A stretch of DNA of 64,000 nt from Mariniblastus sp. (GTDB lineage: Bacteria > Planctomycetota > Planctomycetia > Pirellulales > Pirellulaceae), in the NCBI GenBank assembly GCA_014237975.1, contig JABACA010000005.1:2473-66472 (forward strand), given 5' to 3'. Each line of letters opens with the position of its first letter. The stretch's first letter is position 1. Below are positions 5,564 through 64,000 of the stretch, in pieces. Below the pieces are notes generated by a model. It did not search any database and was not told the origin of the DNA. It saw only the letters and a list, made by a program, of their open reading frames with translations. The translations under genes and the position numbers were made by a program.

Positions 5564-5702
5564 GCTGCTGTGGCATGGCGTCATCAACCGGACACTAAAA
5601 CAGCGCGGCGGATATTATGAAATCTGCTGACAGGGATCTAGGCCAATTGTTGGACCCGGCTGTGCGGTTGCGGCCGACAGGATGCTAGCAATAGGAGGAT
5701 GC

Positions 5703-7043: not shown

Positions 7044-7153
7044 TCAAGACCTGCTGGTGTGACATGTGGATCGACACCGATTATACCCGATTCCCATGAC
7101 GGGCCGTTGACAGTACGGATCTCCGGAATCGGGCCCCATGCCCCCGGTGAGGG

Positions 7154-7753: not shown

Positions 7754-7788
7754 GGTTAGTCGTACGCGCTATGCGAATCGTTACACAT

Positions 7789-8148
7789 CTAGGGAGACAT
7801 GTTAGGTGTATCCGGCTGCCGTGGATATTCGTCGACAGATTTCTTGTAATGGCTCTGGTCCATTAATGTCAAGCCAATGAACAGTATCACGAACAACGAC
7901 GAGGAAAGAAACACGAGCACATTGAACGGCTTATCCCAGTACATATGCATGAAAAACAACAGGACCAAGGCAGCTTTGAATGAGGCAATTGACATGGCGA
8001 TCCAAAAACCGAACGGGCCCATCAGCCCCATGTCCACCGTCGACATGAATAGCGTCAGGATGGTTAACAGGACCAGGACAACGAAAACGCCAATTAACAG
8101 CTTGGGTGCAGCGGGGTGTGCAAAACCGCTATCGTGATTATGTGACAT
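7789..8148 (-). CDS. Cytochrome c oxidase subunit IV (bacterial CoxIV family)
   Basis: ORF 7789..8148. It is a small 3-TM protein (LIGVFVVLVLLTILTLF, WIAMSIASFKAALVLLFFMH) lying between the two Cox3-type genes, which is the typical position. Confidence 0.65.
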   Translation of the reverse strand: MSHNHDSGFAHPAAPKLLIGVFVVLVLLTILTLFMSTVDMGLMGPFGFWIAMSIASFKAALVLLFFMHMYWDKPFNVLVFLSSSLFVILFIGLTLMDQSHYKKSVDEYPRQPDTPNMSP

Positions 8149-8199
8149 GATAAGTTTTCTTTACTTATGGTTGGATGTTCGTTTTACAACGGACGCTTT

Positions 8200-9282
8200 C
8201 TAGTCAATTAAATACAACAGTGGGAACAGGTAGATCCAGATCAAGTCGACCAGGTGCCAGTACAAGCCGACATAGTCGCAAGGTCCAAAATAGTCGCTCC
8301 TCCAATGCCCCAGTATTGATCGCCAGAGGATCCACGCAAGAAAAGCGATTCCGGCAATAATATGAATGGCATGCAGGCCCGTCATGCAGTAATAAATACT
8401 AAAGAAAATGCCGACATCCTGGTCAAACTCGTCGCTTTGCGGGCCTTGGTACGGCGCAATTTCGCTTTCTGCCCTCTGCTGCTCGACCGCACTTTCGTCG
8501 TGGTGGTCGACTGGCTTGTTCGTGTGTTCGTCGTCGGAGTGCGTTTCGTTTTCGTAGGCCATCAGGGCCGCCGCTTTTTCGGAGCGACCCCCGAGACCTC
8601 CGTCTGTAATTTCCATGTAGAAGTGCCCGGCCAGGGCCCCAATGAAATAGCCACCGATGGCAATCGCCATGCAGGCTGAGAAGAACGACGCATTGGGTTT
8701 TTCAATCATTCTCGCGATCGCCGCATAAACGGCAAAACCGACGACCAATAACAGCGGAATAATACTTAACCAGATCAGGTATTCGGAAACTCCCAAGGCG
8801 TGTGCCAACGTACCGGCAGGTGCTTCGTGGTGGCCGGGATGGTAGTCAAATGCACTGCGAACAAAGATTCCTTGATCCCATTTATGGGTGTACTCAATCG
8901 CTTTGACGCCCAGGAAAGCGGCCGCACATACCATCGTTCCCAAAACGTACCAGACGACATGGCCATTTTTTCCCAACTGGGAGTAGCGCACGGCCACCGC
9001 CATTGTGAGGCTGCTGAACAACAGGACCAGGGTGTTGGCGAACCCCAGGTACTTATCCAGAAAAACGTGTGCCTGGTCGAAGATCTCGGGATGGAGGACC
9101 CGGTACAATGTATAGGCGACAAACAAACCACTGAAAAACAGAACCTCCGTTACCAGGAATAACCAGATCCCCAGTTTCCCGGAGTCAAATTGTTGCTCCG
9201 CAGAGTCAAAGTGGTGTGCGATAAACTCACCATGATCATGATGGTCATCGTGTGCTTCGTTTTCGGTTTCTACTACGGCCAT
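8200..9282 (-). CDS. ctaE: Cytochrome c oxidase subunit III with internal 2-TM/acidic insertion
   Basis: ORF 8200..9342, trimmed to the ATG at 9282 (MAVVETENE...). It carries HHFDSAEQQ...GIWLFLVTEVLFFSGLF and the C-terminal YWHLVDLIWIYLF signature. Confidence 0.85.
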   Translation of the reverse strand: MAVVETENEAHDDHHDHGEFIAHHFDSAEQQFDSGKLGIWLFLVTEVLFFSGLFVAYTLYRVLHPEIFDQAHVFLDKYLGFANTLVLLFSSLTMAVAVRYSQLGKNGHVVWYVLGTMVCAAAFLGVKAIEYTHKWDQGIFVRSAFDYHPGHHEAPAGTLAHALGVSEYLIWLSIIPLLLVVGFAVYAAIARMIEKPNASFFSACMAIAIGGYFIGALAGHFYMEITDGGLGGRSEKAAALMAYENETHSDDEHTNKPVDHHDESAVEQQRAESEIAPYQGPQSDEFDQDVGIFFSIYYCMTGLHAIHIIAGIAFLAWILWRSILGHWRSDYFGPCDYVGLYWHLVDLIWIYLFPLLYLID

Positions 9283-48744: not shown

Positions 48745-49770
48745 CTAACCGTTTGCCATGTTCTGGAACTGGCCAATCTCGGGGTGGATAACTCGAGCGT
48801 CGACCCGTTTAAGGCTCTTTTGTAGCAGCGACAGCATTTCCGGATCATGATAAGTGCCAACAATCGCGCCGCCGCTGCCACAATATTTGGCACTGGCGCC
48901 CACGGAACGGGCCAGCTCTACCAGGCGAACATGCTCCGGGTGAAGGCTGCACAACTGACGACGTAAGTCAAAATTCTGGTTGATTAAATTGGCAAGAAGT
49001 GGCTGGTCGTTTTCCAACAAGGCGGTGCGGCCCTGTTCTGCATAGTCCGCAAATTGACCCATGGCATCAATCACGACCGATTCACGGTCCTCGAACCGTC
49101 GTTTGAGATCGTTGTGGAAAACCTCTGTCGGTTCACTCGCACTGGGACAAAACGCAACGTAGATATTAGGTAACAAGGTTGGGTCGAGACGTTCGTATTT
49201 TCCAAATGACAAGCCCCGTTCGGTCTGGATTTGCGATTCTGCGAAATCCATGTAAATCAGTCCTTCATAGGCCTGGATAACCCGATCCTGCAGCCCGGCC
49301 GGTATTCCCAAATCAGCTTCTACACTCAGCGTCAGCGATGCGAGCAGGTGGGGTGCAATCGAGATGCCGTACCAGTCGGCCAAGCCTCGCAGTGCGGCCG
49401 TGATAATCGCGCTGGAACCGGCTAGCCCCACCTGCCGCGGAATGTTGCTGTGGTATTGAATGCGAAAGTTGTCAGCCTGAACGCCGGAGTCAGCCACGCA
49501 AAATTCAAAAAAACGTTTGATGGATGCTTTCAGCAACCGGACACCACCGTAGTAGCCCTCGTTCTGTACTCGGCCGGCAAGCTGCTCGATACTTTCAAAT
49601 TCCAATCCCTCGTTGGCCCCTGGCTGTATCGTGAGCCGGTTAGCCGAATACATGTCTACCTGGGCTGCAAAATCGCCCACGATCAAGGATATCGTTTTGC
49701 CATGATATCCATCGGAGGGGTTTCCAAGCAAACCTGCCCGCGCGTAGCCTCGTCGACTAATGTGTTTCAC
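48745..49770 (-). CDS. GHMP-family sugar kinase resembling plant-type glucuronokinase
   Basis: ORF 48745..49770. It carries ARAGLLGNPSDGYHGKTISL, NEGYYGGVRLL, the GHMP motif NIPRQVGLAGSSAII, GIPAGLQDRVIQAYEGLIYMDF and SAKYCGSGGAIVG. I recall these motifs as matching the glucuronokinase (GlcAK) family. The start overlaps the upstream gene's stop by 14 nt. Confidence 0.65.
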   Translation of the reverse strand: MKHISRRGYARAGLLGNPSDGYHGKTISLIVGDFAAQVDMYSANRLTIQPGANEGLEFESIEQLAGRVQNEGYYGGVRLLKASIKRFFEFCVADSGVQADNFRIQYHSNIPRQVGLAGSSAIITAALRGLADWYGISIAPHLLASLTLSVEADLGIPAGLQDRVIQAYEGLIYMDFAESQIQTERGLSFGKYERLDPTLLPNIYVAFCPSASEPTEVFHNDLKRRFEDRESVVIDAMGQFADYAEQGRTALLENDQPLLANLINQNFDLRRQLCSLHPEHVRLVELARSVGASAKYCGSGGAIVGTYHDPEMLSLLQKSLKRVDARVIHPEIGQFQNMANG

Positions 49771-50656
49771 GTGTTGATCCCGTTTCCCGACAAACTTTGT
49801 TCACAACATCCCGTAATTGCGGATCGGCCAAAGCATGGTGAATGAAGGACTCAGTGTAGGATTCCAGATTGCCAATGTCAAAACGCCGTTCTGCCGTACC
49901 CAGCTTTACGCCAAATGCTCTTGAGCCAGATTGGATCATTTGCCGGATTGCATCGGTCAACTGGATTTCATTGCCCTTTCCGCGAGGCGTTTCGCGGAGC
50001 GCGCTAAAGATTTTTGGGCTAAAGACATAGCGAGCGGTAACCGCCAGATTACTGGGCGCTTCCTGAAGGCTGGGTTTCTCGACCAAATCGGCCAGCTCAA
50101 ATACGGAATCGTCCGACAACGGCTTGGCAATTCCAAAACGATCAACTTTTTCGGGAGACACGGTTTCAAACGCGATGACGATATCGGCTTGCCGCTCGTC
50201 AAACAATCGAATCATCCGTTGAAGCACATTATCGGATCCTTGCGAATCAATCACACAGTCACCCAGGGCAACCACCACCGGCTCGTCTTGGGCCAGTAAC
50301 TCCCCCACGGCGACGGCATGCCCGAGGCCCAGCTGTTCCGTTTGAATGGCCGTCTCCAGCTTCATTGCCGCGGCAGCCGACTGAGACCAGAGGCGTTGGG
50401 CCAGCTCCGGCTTTCCCGTTTCCTGAAGATGACGTTCCAGGTCAGGACCTTGCTTGAAATAATCTGCTATTCCTGATTTTGCCGGCGAGCTAATAAGAAT
50501 CGTCCTGCGGATGCCGGCTTGCCATAATTCCTCAATCACATACTGCAGAGTCGGCTTGCCAGCCAAGGGGAGAAGCTCCTTGGGAATTGCCTGGGTGATG
50601 GGCAACAAGCGTGTTCCCAGCCCCGCTACAGGCACGATTGCCGTTTTAATTGCCAT
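49757..50656 (-). CDS. galU: GalU-type UTP--sugar-1-phosphate uridylyltransferase
   Basis: ORF 49757..50656. It carries AIVPVAGLGTRLLPITQAIPKELLPL, GLGHAV and ...EKP..., the nucleotidyltransferase fold of the GalU family. Sugar specificity cannot be decided from the sequence. Confidence 0.8.
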   Translation of the reverse strand: MAIKTAIVPVAGLGTRLLPITQAIPKELLPLAGKPTLQYVIEELWQAGIRRTILISSPAKSGIADYFKQGPDLERHLQETGKPELAQRLWSQSAAAAMKLETAIQTEQLGLGHAVAVGELLAQDEPVVVALGDCVIDSQGSDNVLQRMIRLFDERQADIVIAFETVSPEKVDRFGIAKPLSDDSVFELADLVEKPSLQEAPSNLAVTARYVFSPKIFSALRETPRGKGNEIQLTDAIRQMIQSGSRAFGVKLGTAERRFDIGNLESYTESFIHHALADPQLRDVVNKVCRETGSTRETH

Positions 50657-50706: not shown

Positions 50707-50759
50707 AAATGCCCGCGAAAGAAGTAGCGGGTAACAATGGTTACGCCCAGCGGGCATTT
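50707..50759 (-). terminator. Inverted repeat AAATGCCCGC...GCGGGCATTT (10-bp arms, 33-nt spacer with nested short stems) overlapping the stop of the upstream gene
   Basis: Read directly from the sequence. On the minus strand the 3' arm is followed by TTTGATC. The terminator/attenuator role between the exosortase paralog and galU is speculative. Confidence 0.3.
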
Positions 50760-52377
50760 AATGGCCAAGTGCTGATTCCAACCGGTCCACGTTTGATTTC
50801 AGTTGATCGATCAGCTGAAGATCGGGTTGGTCGAAAAACTGAACGAACACCTTGAAGTAAACACGATGAGGCAAAAACATTTCAGGCAATGAGGGTGAAC
50901 CCCAGGCGGGAAAATGTCCGAGCAGGTCAGTCGTGGGCCGCTGGCTGGCGGCAAGTTCTTTGATGAACAATAGCCCTTTTTCTCCACTCTCTTTTGCCAT
51001 TTCGATTACTTGCAAATCGTTATCGACCGAGACATCCACGACGTTCCAATGGTGCCGCTTTTGTTGGGCAGCCGGATCTGCCCAGCGACCTTCCAGTTCC
51101 GACGCGGAAACGAGGCACTGGACGCCGTCAAAATAGTAGTACCAGCGGTACTCGAGAGCCCCCGTCGAACTGGTTGTGTTACGTTGTATTGATTGATATC
51201 GAACCAGATCGGACAAAGGCTCGACGGTGAAATCGTCGGCCTCTATCAAGGTGGAAAGTTGACCGGAAACCGGTTTTTCAATTGCCAGAAAACGGGCGTA
51301 TCCTATGCCGCCGAACAGAGCTGACAGCAGGGCAACAGCCACCAACAGGCTGGCGGGCACCGTGGTTTGCCGAGAGTGACGGCGAGCCGATTTCTCAATC
51401 ACCCGGCTGGCCAGGCAGCGGTTCCAGAATTTCCCAGCTTTACCGACCAGGTCAGACGACGACTCCAGGCTCTCTTGTGTCACAGGCCCGAACCAAAATG
51501 CCAGAAATTGGTCCGTTGAAATAATCAACAAGACGGTCGCGACGACGATCAACACCTCGATCAACGAGGTTGATTCTACTGTTACATCAACGAACATCAA
51601 TTGAAACAACACGCCCAGAGTGACCAGCAAAACAGTTTGGCCAAACACGGCCCAAAAACCAACCGAAATCAATAACAAGAACGCATGAAACAAACGCCGT
51701 GCATAAAGTCCAACCAAGGTCAGCCCGACGGCGACAAGGAATGGAACACCCAGCATTGACCGGACGGAAAAATCCAATGGCAAGATTCGCAATTCGTCAT
51801 TGAATCGAAAAGGAATTTCTTCGTCGGCAATTAGTATCCCGGGCACACGCAATATTGGCTCACTGCAATAAAGACCCAGTTGACTCAACCAGTCATTGAT
51901 CGCCATGTCAATTGAAAACAGTGGAAGCAGTAATGCCAGCAGCGGCAAAACGACACCGCCATACACCCGTTTACCAGCGGTGGTGCGAATGGAACTTTCG
52001 ATCGCAAACAGCATCAAGACAAGTGCGGCAGCCAGCAGCCAAGGATCGGCAAAAACAAATAGCAACGTATTGCAAATTAAAGCGCCGGCCAGGCAGGCTG
52101 CCCCGGGCGCGCCAAAATGAAACAGTGTTTCTTTTCTAAAATTTTGAAACAAGCGGGCGAACAGGATTGCCCCGCTACAGGCAATCACGTACCCAATCGT
52201 TTCATAACCTGCCCGGGGATAAATCACACACCAGTAAACAGAAGCAAAGACTGTCTGGGCCAATGCGGCAACCACAATCAGCACCAACGGAATTCGATGG
52301 TGATTCGATTCGGTATTTGGTTGGTCAGACATCAATGCGATTTGGATGGAGTCGTGGAACGATGGGGGCAGGGTCAA
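50758..52377 (-). CDS. Exosortase-EpsI-like paralog lacking the conserved Cys/Arg/His residues (putative pseudo-exosortase)
   Basis: ORF 50758..52377. It has the same architecture as the upstream exosortase: a polytopic N-terminal region, a linker, a TM helix and a periplasmic domain. Collinear matches are DPW..LPL..INDWLSQL, WAVF and LLIISTDQFLAFWFG versus LLLLSTDQVLFFLFG. The CSG position reads DFSVRS (51757-51774). Confidence 0.55.
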   Translation of the reverse strand: MTLPPSFHDSIQIALMSDQPNTESNHHRIPLVLIVVAALAQTVFASVYWCVIYPRAGYETIGYVIACSGAILFARLFQNFRKETLFHFGAPGAACLAGALICNTLLFVFADPWLLAAALVLMLFAIESSIRTTAGKRVYGGVVLPLLALLLPLFSIDMAINDWLSQLGLYCSEPILRVPGILIADEEIPFRFNDELRILPLDFSVRSMLGVPFLVAVGLTLVGLYARRLFHAFLLLISVGFWAVFGQTVLLVTLGVLFQLMFVDVTVESTSLIEVLIVVATVLLIISTDQFLAFWFGPVTQESLESSSDLVGKAGKFWNRCLASRVIEKSARRHSRQTTVPASLLVAVALLSALFGGIGYARFLAIEKPVSGQLSTLIEADDFTVEPLSDLVRYQSIQRNTTSSTGALEYRWYYYFDGVQCLVSASELEGRWADPAAQQKRHHWNVVDVSVDNDLQVIEMAKESGEKGLLFIKELAASQRPTTDLLGHFPAWGSPSLPEMFLPHRVYFKVFVQFFDQPDLQLIDQLKSNVDRLESALGH

Positions 52378-52391
52378 GCGACCCAGCCGGG

Positions 52392-54200
52392 CTAAGGTTT
52401 CGTCGCTTCGTCTTTCAGTTTCTGGGGCGTTGTCTCGCGCAGCGGCTTCCCCGCTCTCTTGGCAAGAAATTCTTCGCGCAATTGTTCGCGAACAACCAGA
52501 AAATGGCTTCTGATTTCGTCCATTGCCTGCTGGGTGAATTCACCGTATTGGGAAACAAAGGCTTGCGTTTGGTAGGTTTCACTTTGGAATAGACTGCCGC
52601 GTATGCGATGGGTCAGACGGTTTTGTGCGCGGATAAAGAAAGAGTTTAGCGTACCCCAGTTGCGAGGCGCCCACATCGGGTCTCCAAACGCGTCGAACAG
52701 ACTAAAGAGGAGGAACCCGTACTCCCCCGTGTCTTTCTGGAAATGGGCTTCGATGTAAGGCCACTGAACGGTATCTCCGTCGACTTCGATCGTGCTATAT
52801 AGCAACTTTCGTTTGGTAAGCTTCCAGCCCGTATTTCGATAGCAAGTCGTCAGTTCGTGCCATCCAGGAAATGTCTGGTCCATCGAGATCGTTGAGCGAA
52901 GACGCCGAGCCGGGGTTTCATAAATCCAGGTATCGGACCGCAGGCCCAAGTCACTTCCCCGCGAGCGGTTTTGTGCCCGATAGTCAATCTGTGTCCACTT
53001 CAAATCTTCCCCGCCGGGCCCCACCGTTGACATGTTCAAAGGCAAGTCCGCCTGAGAAAAAGGCTTGGTGACATCCGTGGAAAAGAACTGAACACTGAAT
53101 TTAGGACGAGAGTAGGATCGAACCACATCGACGAACTGGAATGCGCCGGCCAACAATATCAAAATGGCTGCCGACCATATCGCGTACAGCCCGATTTTGG
53201 AGATGGGCCGACGCCAGTTTTTTCGCTTGCTGTTAGCCTGCTCCTCGTTCCGCGGTTCCACGAGGTTGCTCCACATCGAGCTGAGCAGACGGGACACTCG
53301 CCCCGTTTTTTGTTCCGGGTTGTTTCCCGAACCAAACAGGAAAAACAAAACCTGGTCGGTGCTGAGCAACAGCAAAATGCCGAGCGTCAAGGTTCCATAT
53401 CCAAGTAATTCGTGCGGAAAACCAACCGACAGGTCAACATTCCACCAGTAATCTGCAACCGGAATCATGATGATTCGAATCGAATTCATGAAAACGGCCC
53501 AGACCACCGCGGCTGCGATCAAAACCAGGCTGCGAAACAGGGGCCGACGCTCCCAGATCACAAAAACAATTGCCACAAACAGCAACGTGAAAAACGATTG
53601 GACTCCACTGCAGGCGTTTTCGATGTTGTACAGTCGGCTGCCGGGAATCTCGATGAGGGTTCCCGACAGATGGTGGTTCATTCCAAAAATATCCAGCGTA
53701 CTGCTGGTCACCGACGCACTGAGGCGCTGCAACCAGTTGATGAGCGTATAGTCGCCACCATTGGGAATGATCAAAGCTACGTAAAGCGGAAGCGATGCGA
53801 TGGACATGCCGCGTCCCGTTTCCGAATCGACCGTCCGGGCCAACAAGCTGGACACTAACAACATCACGCTCAGCGCAGAAAACCACGGCGATAAAAACAC
53901 ATATCCCGCCAAGCAGCAAACGATCCCCATGACAAACAAGCAAACGCTCCACGAGCTTCTGTAATATTTGAGCTGCTTGTCGCGCGGCCATCGATTGTAG
54001 GCAATCAGGCAGGTGGCCAGCACTGCAAATGGCGCAAATTGATAATGGGGCCGACTCCACAGCTCGCGGGCATACAGCACGATCATGGGCAGCTGTGCCA
54101 ATATGGCGATGCCATAAGGTAGCCAAACCTTGTCGAAGTAGCCTGCGCCGAAGGATCCGCGAGGTTTCCTGTCGGCAGTTGGAACAGATGCAGAGGACAT
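52392..54200 (-). CDS. Exosortase (EpsH family) fused to a C-terminal EpsI-like periplasmic domain
   Basis: ORF 52392..54200. It has about 8 TM helices. The catalytic-type motif is NIENACSGVQSF (Cys codon 53610-53612), followed by the Arg in FMNSIRIIMIP and the His in GFPHELLGYG. After an additional TM helix there is a ~250-aa domain with the EpsI-like FPGWHELTTCYRNTGW. Confidence 0.75.
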   Translation of the reverse strand: MSSASVPTADRKPRGSFGAGYFDKVWLPYGIAILAQLPMIVLYARELWSRPHYQFAPFAVLATCLIAYNRWPRDKQLKYYRSSWSVCLFVMGIVCCLAGYVFLSPWFSALSVMLLVSSLLARTVDSETGRGMSIASLPLYVALIIPNGGDYTLINWLQRLSASVTSSTLDIFGMNHHLSGTLIEIPGSRLYNIENACSGVQSFFTLLFVAIVFVIWERRPLFRSLVLIAAAVVWAVFMNSIRIIMIPVADYWWNVDLSVGFPHELLGYGTLTLGILLLLSTDQVLFFLFGSGNNPEQKTGRVSRLLSSMWSNLVEPRNEEQANSKRKNWRRPISKIGLYAIWSAAILILLAGAFQFVDVVRSYSRPKFSVQFFSTDVTKPFSQADLPLNMSTVGPGGEDLKWTQIDYRAQNRSRGSDLGLRSDTWIYETPARRLRSTISMDQTFPGWHELTTCYRNTGWKLTKRKLLYSTIEVDGDTVQWPYIEAHFQKDTGEYGFLLFSLFDAFGDPMWAPRNWGTLNSFFIRAQNRLTHRIRGSLFQSETYQTQAFVSQYGEFTQQAMDEIRSHFLVVREQLREEFLAKRAGKPLRETTPQKLKDEATKP

Positions 54201-54664: not shown

Positions 54665-55654
54665 TCAAACGCAGGGAGTCTGGATACTTATTTCCGCCGA
54701 CCACGGCAGCTGATCGCGGTACCAGCGAACACACTGCTCCAGACCTTCATCCAGCCCTGTCGCGGGCTGCCAATTTAACTGCCGATTGGCTTTGGAAATA
54801 TCGGCCCACGTGGAATCGATATCGGCTTTGTGAAACGGCTTGTTTTCTATCCGAGCTGTCTTGCCCAACAGCGATTCAAGTTTTTCAATGATGGTAATGA
54901 GACTGATCGGTTGGTTCCCGCCCCCCAGGTTAAAGATTTCATAGCCGACCGGTTTCAAGGCCGCGATGGTGCCTCGCGCGATGTCGTCGACAAAGGTAAA
55001 GTCTCGGGACTGGGTCCCGTCGCCGAACAGTTCGATCGGCTGTTCCTGGTCGATCCATTTGATGAAACGGAAAATAGACATGTCCGGTCGACCGGCGGGC
55101 CCGTAGACAGTGAAATACCGGCAAATCGAGACATCAATCCCATACAAAAAGTGATGAGAATAGGCCATCAGCTCCGCCGATTTTTTGGATGCCGCATAAG
55201 ACGATATGGGCGTATTAACCGGCAAGTCTTCGGTGAAGGGCATTGACTGTCCCGCGTACAACGAGGATGTGGATGCCAACATGTACTTACCCACGTCATG
55301 CTTGCGCATGGCTTCTAGCAGGTTCAAACTGCCAAGGGCATTGGTCGTCATGTAAACCAACGGGTTTTCCATGCTGTAGCGGACTCCTGCCCGGGCAGCC
55401 AGATTGACGACCGTGTCGAAATCAAACTCCTCGAATAAATCCCCAATGGCATCACAATTTTCGAGATCGATTCCGCGAAAATCGAATCCGGACTGTTTTT
55501 CGAGCTGCTGTAATCGGTGCCGCTTGAGGGAAACGTCATAATAATTATTCATGTTGTCGATGCCAACAACATGCTGCCCCTGGTCGGTTAACAATGCGGC
55601 GACACGCGAGCCAATAAATCCCGCGGATCCGGTAACCAAGATCGACTTTGTCAT
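54665..55654 (-). CDS. NAD-dependent epimerase, UDP-glucuronate 4-epimerase-like
   Basis: ORF 54665..55654. It carries ILVTGSAGFIGS, GIDNMNNYYDVSLKRHRL, AARAGVRYSMENP, the catalytic YAASKKSAE and YFTVYGPAGRPDMSIFRF. These patterns are typical of the GAE/Cap1J group of extended SDRs. Confidence 0.7.
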   Translation of the reverse strand: MTKSILVTGSAGFIGSRVAALLTDQGQHVVGIDNMNNYYDVSLKRHRLQQLEKQSGFDFRGIDLENCDAIGDLFEEFDFDTVVNLAARAGVRYSMENPLVYMTTNALGSLNLLEAMRKHDVGKYMLASTSSLYAGQSMPFTEDLPVNTPISSYAASKKSAELMAYSHHFLYGIDVSICRYFTVYGPAGRPDMSIFRFIKWIDQEQPIELFGDGTQSRDFTFVDDIARGTIAALKPVGYEIFNLGGGNQPISLITIIEKLESLLGKTARIENKPFHKADIDSTWADISKANRQLNWQPATGLDEGLEQCVRWYRDQLPWSAEISIQTPCV

Positions 55655-55772
55655 TTAGATGTTGCCAATAAAAAAATGGTTTGATTAAGGGGCGGCTTTG
55701 CCGCGATCCAAAACGGCCGTCCATTGAAACGGGCCGCGATGATACTTGCCACCTCAGCTACCTGCTGCGGGT

Positions 55773-56534
55773 CTATTGTCTCACGGGTCGTTGCCAATAT
55801 TGCGGCAATTTTGACAGAGGCTTGGAAAATCTCAGCCCCAAGGGTGGTTTCATTCCGTTCTCAATCCAGGCTTGGCGATCACTTCGGTTAGCGGCGAGCC
55901 GGTTCCGCAGGGTCGCGTTGCTCTTGCCACCCAGTCGCATTTTTACCAGGATTTCCGGCACGTAACCAACCTTGATGTTGTTTTTGACCATCAGCCGCAC
56001 CATGCATTCGTAGTCCGCCGCCGAACCAAAGCTACTAAGATAACTGCCCAGTTTCTCGTAAACCGTTTTCCTGACATAGACGGTCGGGTGGGGCGGCATC
56101 CAGCCTCGCTGAAACTTCCTGCGCTCGTAGTCGCCTCCTTTCCAATAACGAACGACACGGCGGGTGTCACTGGCATGGACGTAGACCAGGTCGGCGTAGA
56201 CGGCGTCCCAATCGCCGGACAGGAATTGGTCACCGATTCGATTCAGTGCCTGGGGGTCTGCCAAAACATCATCGGCGTGAAGGAACCCCACGACATCTCC
56301 CGTAGCGGCCCGGATCCCCTTGTTCATGGCGTCATAACAGCCTTCGTCAGGCTCACGGATCCACTTTGAAATTCGCGATTCGTTGCTACGAACAACCTGT
56401 TCAGTGCCATCACTGGACATTCCATCGACAACAATGTGCTCAACGGCACACCCTTGTTGCGCACCAACGCTGTCGATTGCATCCTGAATCGTATTGCGAG
56501 CATTATAAACGGCGGTGATAACAGAAATTTTCAC
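55773..56534 (-). CDS. Glycosyltransferase family 2
   Basis: ORF 55773..56534. MKISVITAVYNARNTIQDAIDSVGAQ, VVDGMSSDGT and the DxD-type GFLHADD are present. Confidence 0.8.
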   Translation of the reverse strand: MKISVITAVYNARNTIQDAIDSVGAQQGCAVEHIVVDGMSSDGTEQVVRSNESRISKWIREPDEGCYDAMNKGIRAATGDVVGFLHADDVLADPQALNRIGDQFLSGDWDAVYADLVYVHASDTRRVVRYWKGGDYERRKFQRGWMPPHPTVYVRKTVYEKLGSYLSSFGSAADYECMVRLMVKNNIKVGYVPEILVKMRLGGKSNATLRNRLAANRSDRQAWIENGMKPPLGLRFSKPLSKLPQYWQRPVRQ

Positions 56535-56668
56535 GGTTTAATCGGGGGCGACATTCAAGGCAGCCGAGAGGATTTTCAACGATCATGGTTTCCTGCCTAA
56601 AAGACCAAATCATCACTTCGCTGCGTGTGACAGGGTTGCTTCAAGACGGTTGCAACCGCAACCGCCGT

Positions 56669-57664
56669 TTAACCAAATCGTTTTTTGAACCAGTCAAGCG
56701 TGATTTCCAAACCGCGCTCAAACTGGGTGTTTGGCTGATAATCAAGGTACTGTTCTGCCAGTGAAATATCAGCCAACGAGTGCTTCACGTCACCTTCACG
56801 AGGGTCCTGATAAACGGCGTCTACCGTTGCGCCCGTCAGCGTTTTGATCGCCTGAAACAACTGGTTAACAGTCACCCGTTCACCGACCGCGACATTATAT
56901 GCCCTGCGACTGGCTCCGGGAGTGGTTGTAAACATGCCTCGCACATTTGCCTGCACGGCGTTCGAAACGAAAGTAAAATCACGGGACTGTTCTCCGTCAC
57001 CGTTGATGAACGGCGGCTGGTTTTTAAGAAGTGCGTCCATGAACAACGGAATAACGGCGGCGTAAGGGCCGTCAGGTTTTTGACGAGGGCCATAGACATT
57101 GAAATACCTCAACCCGACCGTTTCGAGCCCGTAACACCGCCCGAACGTACCGGCGTACACTTCGTTGGTGTATTTGGTGGCCGCATAGGGCGAGAGTGGA
57201 TCGCCAATTTGGGACTCGACTTTTGGCATCTCGGGACTGTCTCCATATACCGATGAACTACTGGCGTAAACGAACCGCTTTACGCCCGCATCTTTGGCGG
57301 CCGTCATCAGATTCAGAAAACCAGTCACGTTAGCCGCATTGGTGGCTAGTGGCGTTTCGATTGACCGGGGAACCGAACCGAGCGCTGCCTGATGGGATAC
57401 ATAGTCGATATTGGCGCAGGCGGTTTGGCAGTCGGATTCATTGGTAATATCAAGTTCTAAAAACTGGACGTTGGGGAGCTCAATGAAATCGGCAATGTTT
57501 TCCAGTTTTCCTTCACACAGGTTGTCCATAATGCGCACTTCGCCAGCACCATGGTGGACCAAGTACTCGACAATGTTTGAGCCGATAAAGCCGGCCCCAC
57601 CCGTAATCAAAAAAGAGCAGTTGGAAATATCTGTACGGTGGAAATTATCGTTATAAAGAGGCAT
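56669..57664 (-). CDS. NAD-dependent UDP-HexNAc(A) 4-epimerase (WbpP/TviC-like)
   Basis: ORF 56669..57664. It carries FLITGGAGFIGSN, HQAALGSVPRSIETP, YASSSSVYGD, YAATKYTNE, RYFNVYGPRQ.PDGPYAAVIP and GDGEQSRDFTFV. Confidence 0.75.
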   Translation of the reverse strand: MPLYNDNFHRTDISNCSFLITGGAGFIGSNIVEYLVHHGAGEVRIMDNLCEGKLENIADFIELPNVQFLELDITNESDCQTACANIDYVSHQAALGSVPRSIETPLATNAANVTGFLNLMTAAKDAGVKRFVYASSSSVYGDSPEMPKVESQIGDPLSPYAATKYTNEVYAGTFGRCYGLETVGLRYFNVYGPRQKPDGPYAAVIPLFMDALLKNQPPFINGDGEQSRDFTFVSNAVQANVRGMFTTTPGASRRAYNVAVGERVTVNQLFQAIKTLTGATVDAVYQDPREGDVKHSLADISLAEQYLDYQPNTQFERGLEITLDWFKKRFG

Positions 57665-57727
57665 GAATATTTGTGAATACCAGTTTCAGGTTGAGGGATT
57701 TGAGCCAAGCTCAACGACAGAAAACTC

Positions 57728-59059
57728 TCAAGCTTTCCAAATCTTATGGCGACCATCTTTGACTTCTTTGGTTGCATTGCGCGTGTCGACAACCAGTTCG
57801 CAATGAGACACCAGAAAATCATAATCAAAAACGCTGTGATCGGTGGCAATTAATGCACAATCCAGACCCGCCAGATAGTCAGCCGTCATTTCGCTGCTGT
57901 CCATCTCGGGCACGTCAAAGCTCCGCATTCTTGGCAGGTGCGGGATGTGAGGATCGCAATAACTCAGCTCGGCGCCGCGCTCGGCCAACAACTCCAGCAG
58001 TTTAAAAGAAGGACTTTCCCGAGGGTCATCTACGTTTTTCTTGTAAGCCATCCCCAGGATGCCAATGCGACTGCCTTTGACAGGCTTGCCTTGGGAATTA
58101 AGGGCTTCGGCAACTTTGTGGACAACGTACAAAGGCATGCTCGTATTAATCTCGCCCGCCAGCTCGATAAATTTGGTCGGGATTTCATGTTTGCGGGCAA
58201 CCCAACTCAAATAAAACGGATCAATCGGGATGCAGTGTCCGCCCAAGCCGGGCCCCGGATAAAACGCCTGGAACCCAAACGGCTTTGTTTTAGCAGCGTC
58301 GATGACCTTCCAAACATCAATCCCGATTTTATCGAACAAGATTTTCAGTTCATTGGCCATCGCAATATTGACACTGCGATAGGTGTTTTCCAGGATCTTA
58401 CAAGCCTCGGCGATTTCACACGAATCGACCGGCACGGTCTTGGTTACGGCCTTGGAGTACATTGCATCGGCAATGTCACGGCTCGGTTCGTCATAACCCC
58501 CAACCACCTTGGGAATGGTCGCGGCCACAAAGTTCTGGTTGCCGGGATCTTCCCTTTCCGGGCTGTAGGCAACAAACAGCTCTTTGCCTATGGCAAGCCC
58601 CGACTTTTCCAAGGCAGGCACCACGACATCTCGGGTGGTACCCGGATAGGTAGTGCTTTCCAATACGATCAACTGACCGGGCCGAGCAACCTGTGCAATG
58701 GCATTGGTAGTTTGAACCACATAATTCAGATCCGGGTCACGGCTTTCGGTCAGGGGCGTTGGAACACAGATCAGGATAGCATCTGGTTCACTCAGTCGCT
58801 GCATGTCGCAGGTTGCTTCAAACTTGTCTTGGTCGACCCACTGCTGCACCATCTGGTTACTGATATGGGCAATGTAGCTTTGGCCAGCATTGAGCGCATC
58901 GACCTTGCTCGGGTCCACATCGAAACCCAGGCACTTGAAACCAGCTCTGAAAAACGCGTCGATCAATGGCAGGCCGACGTAGCCCAGGCCAATCACACCG
59001 ATCAGGGCCGTTTGAGTTTCTATTTTGCTTCGAAGACTTTCAGCGGACGACGACATCAA
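57728..59059 (-). CDS. Nucleotide-sugar 6-dehydrogenase (UDP-GlcNAc/UDP-ManNAc dehydrogenase type; TviB/WbpO/WecC-like)
   Basis: ORF 57728..59059. It carries IGVIGLGYVGLPL, ILICVPTPL, SPEREDPGN, KILENTYRSVNIA and the catalytic FYPGPGLGGHCIPIDP. Confidence 0.85.
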   Translation of the reverse strand: MMSSSAESLRSKIETQTALIGVIGLGYVGLPLIDAFFRAGFKCLGFDVDPSKVDALNAGQSYIAHISNQMVQQWVDQDKFEATCDMQRLSEPDAILICVPTPLTESRDPDLNYVVQTTNAIAQVARPGQLIVLESTTYPGTTRDVVVPALEKSGLAIGKELFVAYSPEREDPGNQNFVAATIPKVVGGYDEPSRDIADAMYSKAVTKTVPVDSCEIAEACKILENTYRSVNIAMANELKILFDKIGIDVWKVIDAAKTKPFGFQAFYPGPGLGGHCIPIDPFYLSWVARKHEIPTKFIELAGEINTSMPLYVVHKVAEALNSQGKPVKGSRIGILGMAYKKNVDDPRESPSFKLLELLAERGAELSYCDPHIPHLPRMRSFDVPEMDSSEMTADYLAGLDCALIATDHSVFDYDFLVSHCELVVDTRNATKEVKDGRHKIWKA

Positions 59060-60225
59060 TTTCTCGATTGGGTACAGGTAAGTTTGCTAACCGTTTCTTG
59101 CAGGATGTTTCGATACAGGATCATTTGTTTTTCAATATCGGGATAGGCATCCAGCTGCTGCTGTCCAAGCTGGCTGAGCGACAAGCACTGATCCGCATGA
59201 TTGGCCGTATCCAGGATTTTGGTTGCTGCATCAAGGGGGCTGGCCGGATCAAAATAGACGGCGGCCTCACCACATACTTCACGTGCAAAATCCAGGTCGC
59301 AGGCAACGATTGGAGTACGGGTCGCCATCGCTTCCAGGTATGTGGCTGAAAAAGTCTCCAAAATGGACGGAACAAAACAAACATGCGCGCCACGGTAGAC
59401 AGCCAAACCCTCGGCAACCGGGACATTTCCCAAGTTGACAATTCGGTTTTCTACACCCAGGCGCTTGGCCAGGGAGTCTACCTTGTGGGCGATCGGGTTT
59501 AAGGCATCGATTGTAATAACGATTTCGAAATTTGGCTCATCTAAATCTTCAATTACCTTACAAATTGACGGTATCCAAAGGTGGCGCTTGTGAGAATAGG
59601 GTGCCGCAAAATAGACAATTCTCAATTTCTGTCCCACTTCGCGGAGGTCGGTCGACTCATTGGATTGGTACCACGGCGCCAGCGCGTTGGGAACGATGTG
59701 AATATTGCCAACCGGAATCCCCGCCCGCGCTGACAATCCTCGCTGCGCTGTCTCGGTTTGCACGATGAAAGTCCGGGCCGTATGAAACCAGCGAAGTTTG
59801 TATCGGGATGCAAGATAGAGACCCAGTCGGTTTCGCCAAGGAGAAACGGAACGATAGGCCTCTCGGGTGCTGTGGGTAACCCAGCCATCGGCCACTCCCA
59901 TTAACTCGGGGACGGGCTGTTTCAGGTAGGACGGCCCGCAAAAGGTGAACACCAAATCGGGCGAGGCGGCGCCAATGGCCTTGACCACTTGTCGGCGCAC
60001 CGCGGGCTTGCGAGCTGGTGATTCAATAAACACCCGTTTCGGGTAAGTCACCAAGATGTTGCGTTGGTCCAGTTCCTGTTGCACTCGTTGCGAGATAAAC
60101 AGTCGCCAATCAAACTCATCCAACGCAGTCGACATGTTCTCAATGAACGAGACAGCGCGCTGTAGCACACCACCCTGTTTCAGGGTGGTCATGTTCAAGG
60201 CGATGACGGGTTTGTTGGGATTCAA
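59056..60225 (-). CDS. Glycosyltransferase family 4 (GT-B, GT1-type)
   Basis: ORF 59056..60225. The C-terminal half has the GT-B retaining pattern (VCFVPSILETFSATYLEAMATRTPIVACD). There is a 4-nt overlap with the downstream dehydrogenase start. Confidence 0.7.
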   Translation of the reverse strand: MNPNKPVIALNMTTLKQGGVLQRAVSFIENMSTALDEFDWRLFISQRVQQELDQRNILVTYPKRVFIESPARKPAVRRQVVKAIGAASPDLVFTFCGPSYLKQPVPELMGVADGWVTHSTREAYRSVSPWRNRLGLYLASRYKLRWFHTARTFIVQTETAQRGLSARAGIPVGNIHIVPNALAPWYQSNESTDLREVGQKLRIVYFAAPYSHKRHLWIPSICKVIEDLDEPNFEIVITIDALNPIAHKVDSLAKRLGVENRIVNLGNVPVAEGLAVYRGAHVCFVPSILETFSATYLEAMATRTPIVACDLDFAREVCGEAAVYFDPASPLDAATKILDTANHADQCLSLSQLGQQQLDAYPDIEKQMILYRNILQETVSKLTCTQSRN

Positions 60226-60251
60226 TTTACAGAAAGTTTGTTTCTAAGGTC

Positions 60252-61079
60252 TCAAGACGACGGGTTTACCCAACTGTTATCGGGTTCGTAACCCAAGGCC
60301 AGCAACGTCTCTCCTTCAAATTCAGCAAAAACACGGCGGGCTTCTTGGTTAAACAGGTTGTGCCAGTCTCCCACAATGCCTTTTCGCTCAAACTGGTGGT
60401 TATCCGACTGTCCCGGTGTGCGCAGTGTGCCAGACCGTCGCTTGGTTCGATTGGCAAACGAGTTTTTTTCAATGGCAGCTTCCAGGTGTTCGCGCGGCAC
60501 GGAGCGTCCTAGGAATTCGGTCAGCAGTCCCAGTTGTTTTACGGGGTCGGTCTTGAAATCTTCGTATTTGGCGTAGCACGCATTTCGGGCAGCAAGCCAT
60601 CGAGTGACAAACTCGCCAAAGCCAAACCGGGGGTGATCCGGTGATGTCAACTGGACTTTTAGGAAGGCGAGAAAATCGTCCTGGGCATCTCGTGCGGGGT
60701 CGTGGCAATACCCGCCGATCGTCAACGGCCGGTGGTCGCGAAATTTTTGGTCGTAATGGACTTTCTTGTGGTAGAACGAAACCATCGCGTCACGCGGGTC
60801 GCGAAAAACGACAATCGCGCGACGGATCATCCGGTGGGGGAGTTTATGGCACTGCACGATCGTGTCGCTGGATAGCAGTCGATCATAAGCGTACTGTGGA
60901 ATGTCCATCGAGTCCTGTAGTAAGTGGCGAATCCATGTGCCGCCACAGCGCGGGTATTCCACCAGGTGGGTGATCCGCAGTTGCCTCCCGAACAGACCGT
61001 TGATGACGCCATTGGTGACCTGGTAATAGCGGTTGGACACCGAAGTGGCCGTCAGTCGTTTCCAGACGTTGTGTTTCAT
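60252..61079 (-). CDS. PAPS-dependent sulfotransferase
   Basis: ORF 60252..61079. The 5'-PSB loop is EYPRCGGTWIRHLL, the 3'-PB region is VVFRDPRDAMVSFYH, and the C-terminal motif is RKGIVGDWHNLF. There is a 4-nt overlap with the upstream GT4 stop. Confidence 0.8.
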   Translation of the reverse strand: MKHNVWKRLTATSVSNRYYQVTNGVINGLFGRQLRITHLVEYPRCGGTWIRHLLQDSMDIPQYAYDRLLSSDTIVQCHKLPHRMIRRAIVVFRDPRDAMVSFYHKKVHYDQKFRDHRPLTIGGYCHDPARDAQDDFLAFLKVQLTSPDHPRFGFGEFVTRWLAARNACYAKYEDFKTDPVKQLGLLTEFLGRSVPREHLEAAIEKNSFANRTKRRSGTLRTPGQSDNHQFERKGIVGDWHNLFNQEARRVFAEFEGETLLALGYEPDNSWVNPSS

Positions 61080-62230
61080 GGCTTTAACACCTGCCGATGC
61101 AGTGCCCCGCTGTAGCCTTGCACAGCATCCAGATAGGCCTTTTCAAGCTGGCCGATTGTTTGTTCCAAATCGAACTTCAGGCATGCCTCCCGAAAAGCGA
61201 CCTCGGCCATCTGCTCAGCTTGTGGACGGTTGGCCATGACCGTGCGGATCGCATTGGCCAAGGCGTCCACATCATGGACCGGCACCACCGTGCCGGATTT
61301 TCCATTTTCAATGACTTCGGCTACCGGCTTGATGTCAGCGGCGATAATCGGGACTTCGCACAGTGCGGCTTCAATGACCGCGTTAGGCAGTCCCTCTGAC
61401 TCGGAGGGAAACGCGAACAGGTCAGCAGCCCGCACGAGCGGAATGACGTCTTCCCGTGTTCCAAGAAACTGTACGTGATTGCCTAAACCGAGCTGACCCG
61501 TTTTTTGCATCAATGATTCGCGGCAAGGTCCATCGCCCACGATGAGCACTTGAAAATCGTTTCCGGCGCGATCGATTTTTGCACAGGCTTCGAGTAGATC
61601 GACGTGCCGCTTGGTTTCAATCAATCGCCCCACGGTGATGATGACAAAATCGTTTCCACCCAGACCCAGCTGTTGCCGTTGCTGATCGCGACCGGTCGCT
61701 GCGCCAACAGCAGCCAGGTCATGCCCGTTGTATATCAGGCGCAAACGGTGTTCGTCGACGTTCATTGCCCGCCAGAAATCTACGACGCCCTCGCTGTTGC
61801 ACACAATCGGATAGCAGTACCGACCCAACCCATATTTCATCATCGAACCCTGCAAGGGAAGCAATAACTGAACCCCTCCACACGAATACATCATGGGGAT
61901 TTTTGAACGGAACAGGAGCCGGCTGGCAACGGCATAGTATCCTACCGAGGGCAAAAACATGTGTATCAGATCGGCACCGGAATGTTTCAGTTTGCGGGCC
62001 ACCTTAAGCAGGTAAATCGGGTTGAAAGACTTGGGTGCATTGAGGCAAACCGTACTAATCCCCGCCTCGTCCAGCAGTGGCCGGAGATTTTTTTTGGCCT
62101 CGTGAAGGTACCAGACTTCCGGCGCAAATCTTGTTTTGTCAATCGACTTGCAATACTGCACCAGGTTCCGCTCTGTGCCGCCATGGCCGAGCGTGGTAAC
62201 GAAACAGATGATTCGAAGTTTTTTAGACAC
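61076..62230 (-). CDS. Glycosyltransferase family 4 (GT-B, GT1-type)
   Basis: ORF 61076..62230. It carries RIICFVTTLGHGGTERN, and the C-terminus has ADLFAFPSESEGLPNAVIEAALCEVPIIAAD (E-x7-E-like). Confidence 0.8.
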   Translation of the reverse strand: MSKKLRIICFVTTLGHGGTERNLVQYCKSIDKTRFAPEVWYLHEAKKNLRPLLDEAGISTVCLNAPKSFNPIYLLKVARKLKHSGADLIHMFLPSVGYYAVASRLLFRSKIPMMYSCGGVQLLLPLQGSMMKYGLGRYCYPIVCNSEGVVDFWRAMNVDEHRLRLIYNGHDLAAVGAATGRDQQRQQLGLGGNDFVIITVGRLIETKRHVDLLEACAKIDRAGNDFQVLIVGDGPCRESLMQKTGQLGLGNHVQFLGTREDVIPLVRAADLFAFPSESEGLPNAVIEAALCEVPIIAADIKPVAEVIENGKSGTVVPVHDVDALANAIRTVMANRPQAEQMAEVAFREACLKFDLEQTIGQLEKAYLDAVQGYSGALHRQVLKP

Positions 62231-62303: not shown

Positions 62304-63827
62304 TCAATACCGAACCTTGGGTGCTTCGCTGTTGGGCCGTCCCACCAGCTTGATGCCCAGGATGAATGCAAAAAAGGCGGTGTATATCACGGGATAGCCA
62401 ACGTGCCGTATGAGCAGGCTGGTAATTCCATATCGTCCACAAATCGAGGACACGGCAATCAGGGCGATGAATGCCACTTTCCACAACAGGTTCCTGGAGG
62501 ACCGCGCCTTTTCCGTTACGTATCGATAGAACACGCCCAGGATCAAGAAAAAGATACTGGCCCCCCAGAACCCCACCTCCAGGTAAATATCTCCAAACAC
62601 AGACGATCCACAGCCGGAAACCCGACCAGTCGAACCCTGGATCAGGAAGGTAAAGAGGTGGGACGAACTCGTGTCTGGAGACTGTATGACCCCGAACAGT
62701 TTTCGTCCAAACGGCACCAAGCCAGCCAAGTCGTTGGTTTTCAGTTGCCCCCAATAATAGTCGTGCCGCTCCGGAGCCCAGTCGACAGCCACAAATGCAC
62801 ACAATCCGCTGCCACCAAATGTCTTGGCTGACAATTCGAATGATTTGTCCCAGTGCTCCCTGCCCGCATCATAGAAACCGAAGATCGATCGGTCGTCAGC
62901 CGTGCGGGCAATTTGGGAAACTCCGAACAGCATAAACAGGCCAACCATTGCGAGCAGTCCGGTCTGCAGCTTGATCGGTTTAATAAACTCAGAAACGGCG
63001 GCAACGAACGTTACGATGATCACCAGAAAAAGTGAACGGTCGCCGTGCAGCAGCAAGGCAAATGCGCCCAACAAAACGAGTACCATGTCCAACGCCAACA
63101 GCTTGCGTGTGTTGCTGCGGATGGACGCGCGGGAAAGCACCATGACGGTCACCGAGGCAATGATTAACCCTTGGAAAATCAAAAACACAACATTGGGCAG
63201 AAACCCAAAGGATGAACCACGGTAATTACCCCCCAGGAAAGCCGAACCGATCAGGGTGACAAACAGCGCCAGCAGCAACAAGGAACTACGGGTCATGACT
63301 TTTCCCAGCAGTTGCCAGGCCGCCAGGGTTGCTGGTCGATATTCATTGGACACGGGAACACGACTTCGAATCAAACAGAAGCCGCACTGAAATGCCGCCA
63401 GGCTGGCAGCACACATGGCCAGGGTTTTACAGACCACATCCGGACAGTCGGCTTGCCGCCAATACCAAATCTCATCACCCAGTTCGTAAACACCGGTCAA
63501 CCAGATCGTGATATACAGGAAGTGGACCACGACGTATGACGCGGTGAAGGCCGTTTCCGGAGTAAGCCAGTTGATCGGTCTTGGCTCGCTGAGTTTGCGC
63601 AAGAATACAGTCGCCGAAATCAACGCCACGATCACCAGGATGGCAGCACAATATGAACGGGAAATGGTGTTGGACTCGGGTGCGTTGATGACCAGAAATG
63701 CGCAAACCAGGAAGAAGCAAAAATAGGCAACGGCGAACATCGGGTTCAACCGGTTTGACTTGCGAACCTGTCTTCGTATTAGATCGCTTGGGCCGACAAA
63801 CAATGGTGGATTCCTGTTAGGCTGCAT
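62304..63827 (-). CDS. Wzy-like polysaccharide polymerase / O-antigen-ligase-like polytopic membrane protein
   Basis: ORF 62304..63851. I prefer the start at the ATG at 63827, which overlaps the upstream gene's stop (ATGCAGCCTAA). It has about 12 TM helices and one larger loop, in a glycan locus. The assignment rests on topology and context only. Confidence 0.5.
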   Translation of the reverse strand: MQPNRNPPLFVGPSDLIRRQVRKSNRLNPMFAVAYFCFFLVCAFLVINAPESNTISRSYCAAILVIVALISATVFLRKLSEPRPINWLTPETAFTASYVVVHFLYITIWLTGVYELGDEIWYWRQADCPDVVCKTLAMCAASLAAFQCGFCLIRSRVPVSNEYRPATLAAWQLLGKVMTRSSLLLLALFVTLIGSAFLGGNYRGSSFGFLPNVVFLIFQGLIIASVTVMVLSRASIRSNTRKLLALDMVLVLLGAFALLLHGDRSLFLVIIVTFVAAVSEFIKPIKLQTGLLAMVGLFMLFGVSQIARTADDRSIFGFYDAGREHWDKSFELSAKTFGGSGLCAFVAVDWAPERHDYYWGQLKTNDLAGLVPFGRKLFGVIQSPDTSSSHLFTFLIQGSTGRVSGCGSSVFGDIYLEVGFWGASIFFLILGVFYRYVTEKARSSRNLLWKVAFIALIAVSSICGRYGITSLLIRHVGYPVIYTAFFAFILGIKLVGRPNSEAPKVRY

Positions 63828-64000
63828 AGTGATTGTCCCACCAGGCAACAAATGTCAGTAAACTGAAAATATTGGTTGCTGTGCGGTTTTGTCGAAACGG
63901 ATTATTTTTGTAGGTTTCGAACTCCCGGAACTGCCGTTCGACAGCGGCATGGTCCAGTATCTGGTTCTTGATCGGTTCGGAATCAAGCAATCGTCTTCTT
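63817..64000 (-). CDS. 3' end of a gene truncated by the window edge (C-terminus resembles asparagine synthase-type amidotransferases common in EPS/exosortase loci)
   Basis: An open minus-strand frame runs from the window edge to the TAA at 63817-63819. It translates as ...LLDSEPIKNQILDHAAVERQFREFETYKNNPFRQNRTATNIFSLLTFVAWWDNHYAA*. It is not in the ORF track because its start lies outside the window. The function is a weak by-eye guess. Confidence 0.4.
   Translation of the reverse strand, partial: RRRLLDSEPIKNQILDHAAVERQFREFETYKNNPFRQNRTATNIFSLLTFVAWWDNHYAA

Follow-up and report, generated by a model that had tools for sequence, protein, structure and literature searches.

Tandem exosortase U genes with complementary motif losses, one of them lacking the catalytic triad, in Mariniblastus and other Pirellulaceae

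Exosortases are widespread, and their mechanism is poorly understood. They are associated with exopolysaccharides (EPS), share with archaeosortases a suspected catalytic triad of Cys, Arg, and His, and carry out a reaction for which the choice between cleavage and transpeptidation is still unresolved (Haft 2023 preprint, 10.1101/2023.06.07.544157). In the XrtA/EpsH-EpsI system, an exosortase encoded in an EPS locus has an accessory partner, EpsI (Haft 2006, PMC1569441). Here we analyzed a 64,000-nucleotide stretch of DNA from Mariniblastus sp. (assembly GCA_014237975.1, contig JABACA010000005.1, positions 2,473 to 66,472; referred to as the window), in which two adjacent minus-strand open reading frames (ORFs) of 602 and 539 aa are present, as initially annotated. 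The first, gene A, encodes an exosortase U (XrtU), and the second, gene B, encodes a full-length XrtU paralog without the triad. Like XrtA/EpsH and EpsI, the pair comprises an EPS-locus exosortase and an accessory membrane/periplasmic partner. However, EpsI is no exosortase homolog, whereas gene B encodes a dead copy of the exosortase that it accompanies. Like the other dead copies described below, B descends from XrtU and has the same layout as solo XrtUs, i.e., an eight-transmembrane (TM) core, a linker helix, an extra TM helix, and a periplasmic domain. To our knowledge, neither the acceptor nor the oligomeric state of exosortases is known.

In the rhomboid superfamily, iRhoms and Derlins have lost the catalytic residues and are kept for noncatalytic tasks, among them client binding, trafficking, and regulation. 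Like B, they represent a noncatalytic form of a polytopic membrane protease scaffold; their fold is unrelated and their setting eukaryotic, and iRhoms neither share an operon nor pair obligately with an active paralog of their own. The fungal V-ATPase ring is a heteromer that resulted from complementary loss. The trypanosome AdoMetDC prozyme is a dead-paralog activator (PMC5201418). Both resemble the course proposed here for A and B, in which a duplication would have been followed by complementary degeneration into an obligate hetero-oligomer. However, the proteins concerned are soluble or unrelated, and their complexes have been demonstrated, whereas A and B are so far linked by patterns in their sequences. 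Full-text searches retrieved no literature on XrtU or on exosortases with pseudo-enzymes or inactive paralogs, consistent with the statement in the initial annotation that no such pair was known to have been described. If our reading is correct, B would provide the exosortase/archaeosortase superfamily with its first described pseudo-enzyme subunit, and a noncatalytic exosortase function would become genetically separable.

An exosortase U and its triad-less paralog

Gene A scored above the cutoff with four profiles, namely, NF033780 (XrtU_C; 139.4 bits, cutoff 40), TIGR02602 (120 bits, cutoff 105.55), PF09721 (118 bits, cutoff 25.7), and TIGR04178 (52 bits, cutoff 23), which confirmed its initial assignment to the exosortases. 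Translation, by which the coordinates of the triad residues and of FPGWHELTTCY were verified, placed the three residues in the motifs proposed for them (Table 1), and C197, R242, and H263 were invariant in 25 aligned XrtU homologs as well as in 81/81 active sequences from the loci described below. Gene A is an ordinary, bona fide member of XrtU. Its initial description as an exosortase-EpsI fusion was not supported at the sequence level. The EpsI/DUF3485 model PF11984 matched neither the full A and B proteins at E ≤ 1 nor their isolated C-terminal domains at E ≤ 10. XrtD, XrtW, and XrtT are exosortases fused to EpsI, and their NCBIfam models aligned to the N-terminal core of A only. The supposed EpsI-like motif, WHELTTCY, lies within the XrtU-specific domain represented by NF033780. 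The Foldseek PDB matches of the AlphaFold2 (AF2) models contained no EpsI structure with which the fold could be compared.

This C-terminal domain of A contains a second conserved Cys, Cys453, within the motif FPGWHELTTCY. No Cys column other than C197 and C453 was conserved in the majority of active XrtUs, and the presence of these two co-varied: of 154 family members, 121 had both, 18 had neither, 6 were mixed, and 9 had a gap at 453. The periplasmic Cys453 may work together with the catalytic Cys, for instance as a disulfide, in a thiol relay, or within a pocket common to both.

No exosortase profile of Pfam or NCBIfam matched gene B at E ≤ 1, and homology was therefore established through comparison of family profiles. 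BLASTP aligned A and B over 330 aa with 23% identity (E = 4e-7), and hhalign comparison of the XrtU and B family profiles yielded a probability of 99.7% and an E value of 5.8e-27 over 484 aligned columns, which begin with the first TM helix, end with the C-terminal helix, and include the membrane core as well as the C-terminal domain. The homology of the two proteins, claimed initially from short collinear blocks, was thus substantiated. A hidden Markov model (HMM) of the B family detected XrtUs of the loci described below directly (E values down to 1e-29), and when 1.8 billion cluster representatives were searched exhaustively, all of its 72 matches were XrtU-like; a word-indexed search with B returned 7 close homologs only. 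The AF2 models of A and B shared eight core helices, a short helix, an extra TM helix, a beta-rich domain, and a long terminal helix; both are single-chain models of moderate confidence (predicted local distance difference test scores of 73.0 for A and 70.9 for B). Solved structures were matched neither by sequence nor by predicted fold: the XrtU profile produced chance matches to ClC only (E about 0.1) in a PDB sequence search, and Foldseek comparison of both models against the PDB gave nothing significant. Weak resemblances of the C-terminal domain to START, SciW, and PsbP-like folds (E values of 0.02 to 0.5) were not interpretable.

In the hhalign alignment, Cys197 of A corresponds to Asp202 of B (within PLDFS), Arg242 to a variable Leu, Phe, or Tyr, and His263 to Thr, Ala, or Ser, and no alternative conserved Cys/Arg/His set was found in an alignment of B homologs that included the distant members P0129 (36% identity) and P0161 (22% identity). 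The absence of the triad from B, as initially noted, is therefore confirmed by the profile alignment. An ACSG string outside the catalytic register had also been pointed out; it is indeed present and off-register, but occupies residues 66 to 69 rather than 65 to 68. Since its Cys is replaced by Gly in most orthologs (AGSG), it does not represent a hidden active site. Cys95 and Cys171 of B, which were considered as well, are conserved among close homologs only. Asp202, Ser204, and Glu268, which are located in the part of B that aligns with the lost active site, are invariant throughout the B family down to the 22% identity of P0161, and these three residues may serve for binding or make up a new catalytic site. 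In the periplasmic domain of B, LEGRWADPAAQQ stands in place of FPGWHELTTCY, and the Cys is gone. Because B has neither a curated profile match nor the triad, we refer to its predicted product as a pseudo-exosortase rather than an exosortase.

The two genes had been reported to lie 14 nt apart. This distance applies to the TTG start at position 52377, which gives a protein of 539 aa; an ATG at position 52332 (Met16) gives 524 aa and a gap of 59 nt. The longer gap is more likely, since the ATG corresponding to Met16 is the start both in database homologs and in the B orthologs of two related loci (L001 and L002). A terminator-like site was absent from the gap, and a scan for promoters and terminators gave counts not above those of shuffled sequence. 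A and B are possibly co-transcribed.

Could B instead be a decaying pseudogene or a miscalled ORF, resembling A through the chance similarity of hydrophobic membrane proteins? Its lack of a curated profile match and its 23% identity to A would fit such an explanation. However, the profile-profile match includes the soluble domain, orthologs sharing 89%, 66%, and 50% identity all have intact B ORFs, among which 130 columns are invariant, and the synteny of B is preserved on distant contigs. In a comparison of the window with L001, the ratio of nonsynonymous to synonymous substitution rates (dN/dS) was 0.145 for B and 0.072 for A, values that are approximate because dS (1.4 to 1.6) is close to saturation. 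Given this dN/dS ratio and the intact orthologous ORFs, gene B is kept by purifying selection and is not a pseudogene; the contrary explanation can be regarded as effectively refuted. The dN of B was ∼2.3 times that of A, and its C-terminal domain is strongly remodeled.

Recurrence of the pair and complementary loss of motifs

The closest homologs of the pair were found in Mariniblastus and other Pirellulaceae metagenome-assembled genomes. Scanning of one genome per species yielded 80 XrtU loci, which were labeled nearly exclusively as Pirellulaceae, Mariniblastus, or other Planctomycetota, with one record assigned to Hyphomicrobiales. Seventy-one of these loci had at least 1.8 kb of DNA 3' of the XrtU gene. 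In 12 of the 71, a second XrtU-like ORF without the Cys and Arg followed directly downstream on the same strand, and in none of them was a dead copy located upstream of the active one. Together with B, these dead copies fell into three groups: group 1 with the motif PLDFS (the window, L001, and L002); group 2 with the motif DSLIGI, a Tyr in place of the Arg, and a mostly retained His (L013, L029, L035, L042, and L065); and group 3 with the motif GNG (L049, L055, L058, L069, and L074). Together with the profile matches, the triad loss, and purifying selection, these recurrent pairs support the initial proposal of an enzyme encoded next to a retained pseudo-enzyme paralog.

Comparison of 90 columns, each conserved to at least 95% among 67 solo XrtUs, revealed that the two members of a pair had lost different features. 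Dead copies had lost the catalytic residues and the periplasmic FPGWHELTTCY, whereas F222, F289/P291, and W310/N311 were lost in the active partners and kept in the dead copies. Raw sequences of solo XrtUs exhibited, after the last core helix, a motif consisting of FGPV[D/E], ∼20 further residues, and [F/I/V]WN..[L/I/V][A/S]G. This FGPV…FWN…AG motif was kept in the dead copies of all three groups; in B, it forms a short helix comprising residues 294 to 307 (numbered from the ATG) in the AF2 model. In the active partners, the motif was degenerate in group 1 and lost altogether in groups 2 and 3. A solo XrtU thus carries the triad and FGPV…FWN…AG in one polypeptide, and the pair splits them between two paralogs.

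The WN of this motif was then scored across 154 XrtU-family sequences, excluding three further Cys-containing sequences without the Arg or His. All 24 Cys-less sequences had WN, and none lacked it. Sequences with an intact Cys/Arg/His triad had WN in 105 cases and lacked it in 22; the latter comprised 14 partnered active sequences from the loci and 8 distant database representatives. Accordingly, WN was present in 67/67 solo XrtUs of the loci and absent from 14/14 partnered actives, among which L003, a group 1 sequence from a contig that stops just behind the XrtU gene, was included.

In a neighbor-joining tree inspected by eye, the dead copies within a group branched in the same order as the active copies with which they are paired, which suggests that the two are stably co-inherited. 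All dead copies were placed on long branches near the root, a placement that probably reflects long-branch attraction. In BLAST comparisons, groups 2 and 3 scored about 250 bits against solo XrtUs and about 130 bits against each other. As both groups resemble solo XrtUs more than each other, they probably arose through separate duplications. Group 1 dead copies scored about 90 bits against group 2 and against active copies alike.

Three further pairs were located on metagenome contigs (L081, L083, and L087). The prediction that an XrtU with the Cys but without WN has a dead neighbor held for P0151 of L083, which is followed by the dead P0189, and the pattern was also present in the pairs of L081 and L087. 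In L087, the active copy is followed by P0161 and then, just as in the window, by nucleotidyl-transferase and GHMP-kinase genes. In L081, the downstream copy, P0152, has a Ser in place of the Cys (NASRGV) and a Gln in place of Cys453, and retains the Arg, the His, and most of the periplasmic motif. P0152 is closer to typical XrtUs than is its active upstream partner, which lacks WN, and the L081 pair looks like an intermediate stage.

A more distant XrtU-like subfamily exhibited another order, in which an exosortase gene, a gene for a TPR protein, and a second exosortase gene follow each other, with a small ORF before the second exosortase gene in L084. In L089, the first copy, P0142, has no Cys at the aligned position, and the second has Cys, Arg, His, and WN. 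L084 and L089 represent another type of locus with paired exosortases.

Possible division of labor between the paralogs

Because A and B have lost complementary conserved features, we consider it reasonably likely that a tandem XrtU duplicate was subfunctionalized into an obligate A/B hetero-complex, in which A would catalyze and B would supply a noncatalytic function. Adjacency, apparent parallel descent, and complementary motif loss together suggest such a physical complex and division of labor. In the mechanism that we propose, solo XrtU would form homo-oligomers, each of which would require one or more active sites and one or more cytoplasmic FGPV…FWN helices; the neighboring RRxxF loop (F222) may be part of this cytoplasmic module. 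Complementary losses following a tandem duplication would have bound A and B into an obligate complex. A would then cleave or transfer PEP-CTERM-type substrates, and B would provide the helix-dependent function, which may consist in assembly or in docking to an EPS-machinery component of the cytoplasm or inner membrane; the dead pocket of B might also bind substrate or acceptor without catalysis. B had initially been proposed as a substrate receptor, scaffold, or regulator, and the retention in B of a cytoplasmic motif lost from A puts a constraint on these roles. The natural split would mark the FGPV…FWN…AG helix and the periplasmic Cys453 motif as separable functional modules and would imply that the enzyme acts as an oligomer; the two predictions are directly testable. 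A wider and more tentative reading is that a self-associating XrtU became an obligate catalytic/noncatalytic heteromer in several Pirellulaceae lineages, probably via separate duplications, with the triad and the periplasmic Cys453 motif confined to one subunit and the cytoplasmic FGPV…FWN helix to the other.

The invariance of Asp202, Ser204, and Glu268 down to 22% identity also fits a different course, in which B was neofunctionalized. The exosortase scaffold would then serve another activity or ligand binding independently of A, and the two genes would share an operon through a common role in EPS or surface biogenesis. The faster nonsynonymous evolution of B and the strong remodeling of its C-terminal domain agree with this explanation, as does the occurrence of a Cys-less XrtU-like protein, P0174, that is not encoded beside an active copy. 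However, dead copies of groups 2 and 3 carry quite different residues at the corresponding positions (DSLIGI and GNG), and the three groups thus have no new active site in common. Moreover, neofunctionalization would leave unexplained both the strict adjacency and apparent parallel descent with an active XrtU and the complementary loss of WN from the partner. We therefore consider it unlikely.

Like many pseudo-proteases, B might be a regulator or decoy: it would bind A or the PEP-CTERM substrates, leave them uncleaved, and thereby gate or inhibit sorting. The substrate-facing architecture of B is complete (eight-TM core, STDQ motif, and periplasmic domain) with catalysis gone, and its apparent co-transcription with A would suit such a role. 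A pure inhibitor, however, would not account for the repeated loss from the active partner of a motif that is universal elsewhere and still present in the dead copy, and FPGWHELTTCY, the likeliest substrate-handling motif of the periplasmic domain, is lost in B, so that this role likewise appears improbable.

Several points weigh against an obligate complex of a catalytic and a noncatalytic subunit. The interaction of A and B at its center is predicted from sequence patterns, and self-association of solo exosortases is a premise. Asp202, Ser204, and Glu268, conserved throughout the B family, might point to a new activity, and B would then not be a passive partner. The Cys-less P0174 has no exosortase gene before it on its 3.1-kb contig (L088), and a dead copy is thus not always found directly behind an active one. 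P0191, P0153, and P0195, members of a distant, TPR-associated XrtU-like subfamily, lack WN and have no adjacent dead copy, and the active copy of L089 retains WN; because of these departures, the WN rule is valid within XrtU proper and not for all XrtU-like proteins. The association of WN with partnering further rests on about 4 to 6 independent evolutionary events, and the near-saturated dS and the moderate confidence of the single-chain models likewise limit what can be drawn from them.

Locus context and candidate substrates

The pair is embedded in a run of minus-strand genes that are probably involved in the synthesis of a sulfated EPS (Table 1), a setting expected of exosortases. The upstream run consists of genes for an epimerase, a GT2 glycosyltransferase, a second epimerase, a UDP-glucose/GDP-mannose dehydrogenase, a GT4 glycosyltransferase, a sulfotransferase, and a second GT4 glycosyltransferase. 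The sulfotransferase gene (PF00685) lies among glycosyltransferase genes upstream of XrtU, and a GT4-sulfotransferase pairing likewise precedes the exosortase pair of L081, which suggests that the polymer tied to the locus is sulfated. A 515-aa ORF at the upstream end of the run had no Pfam match at E ≤ 1e-5. Downstream, the synteny of the nucleotidyl-transferase and GHMP-kinase genes was kept in the paired loci L081, L083, L086, and L087.

TABLE 1 Positions of features in the window and in related loci (locus numbers are given before the colon)
Feature	Position	Strand	Basis
Gene A, XrtU, 602 aa, triad intact	52392..54200	-	Profile matches
A, eight-helix exosortase (EpsH) membrane core, aa 32-283	53352..54107	-	PF09721, TIGR02602; AF2 core helices correspond
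A, catalytic Cys197 codon, motif NACSG	53610..53612	-	Translation; alignment invariance
A, Arg242 codon, motif NSIRI	53475..53477	-	Alignment, translation
A, His263 codon, motif GFPHE	53412..53414	-	Alignment, translation
A, degenerate cytoplasmic FGPV…FWN…AG remnant, reads FGSGNNPEQKTGRVSRLLSSMWSNLVE	53256..53336	-	Raw sequence, set against solo XrtUs and dead copies
A, XrtU-specific periplasmic C-terminal domain, aa 401-580	52461..53000	-	NF033780
A, FPGWHELTTCY, inside XrtU C-terminal domain	52839..52871	-	Translation
A, Cys453, within FPGWHELTTCY	52842..52844	-	Co-variation with C197
A-B intergenic spacer, 59 nt with ATG start (14 nt with TTG)	52333..52391	-	Homolog starts
Gene B, catalytically dead full-length XrtU paralog (pseudo-exosortase)	50758..52377	-	hhalign, selection
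B, PLDFS, aligned to catalytic NACSG of XrtU	51766..51780	-	hhalign, translation
B, STDQ motif, common to XrtU (S280-Q283), invariant in both families	51508..51519	-	Alignments
B, retained cytoplasmic motif FGPVTQESLESSSDLVGKAGKFWNRCLAS, short helix between core and extra TM helix	51406..51492	-	Raw sequence
B, divergent periplasmic C-terminal domain, homologous to XrtU_C	50761..51255	-	hhalign, AF2
Probable sulfated EPS genes upstream of the pair	54665..62230	-	Pfam scan
Sulfotransferase gene in the upstream run	60252-61079	-	PF00685
515-aa ORF at upstream end of the run	62304-63851	-	
GalU-like nucleotidyl-transferase and GHMP-kinase genes downstream of the pair	48745..50656	-	Pfam scan
Exosortase pair, downstream copy P0152	L081:2216-3871, 4001-5722		
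P0174, Cys-less XrtU-like	L088:763-2550		
ORF upstream of P0174	L088:1-426		
Exosortase, TPR protein, exosortase	L084:976-2646, 2651-4153, 5207-end		
Exosortase (P0142), TPR protein, exosortase	L089:3501-5213, 5210-6793, 6790-8481		
PEP-CTERM-tailed ORF	L007:2-352		
PEP-CTERM-tailed ORF	L044:5589-7121		
PEP-CTERM-tailed ORF	L045:8767-9549		
PEP-CTERM-tailed ORF	L046:480-1181		
PEP-CTERM-tailed ORF	L062:7235-8227		
PEP-CTERM-tailed ORF	L047:18019-21189	-	
PEP-CTERM-tailed ORF	L050:19424-20008	-	

As initially stated, a check of the ORFs revealed no PEP-CTERM-like ORF within the window, and PEP-CTERM tails were not seen in the paired loci either. In seven related loci, ORFs with such tails (VPEP or IPEP, a hydrophobic TM helix, and RRR) were found near XrtU. 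In L007, L045, and L046, the ORF sits no more than a few hundred bases upstream of the XrtU gene. PEP-CTERM ORFs adjoining XrtU are candidate substrates of this enzyme.

The ORF upstream of P0174 encodes a C terminus that, by eye, resembles a BY-kinase or ParA-type ATPase (…VIVDTPPLLVVTDP…). P0174 itself and the likewise Cys-less P0136, P0144, and P0189 scored 54 to 76 bits with NF033780. Because these scores exceed the cutoff of 40, Cys-less copies of groups 2 and 3 would probably be named "exosortase U" by automated annotation. P0006, the sole member of the B family with a name in its source record, is annotated as hypothetical.

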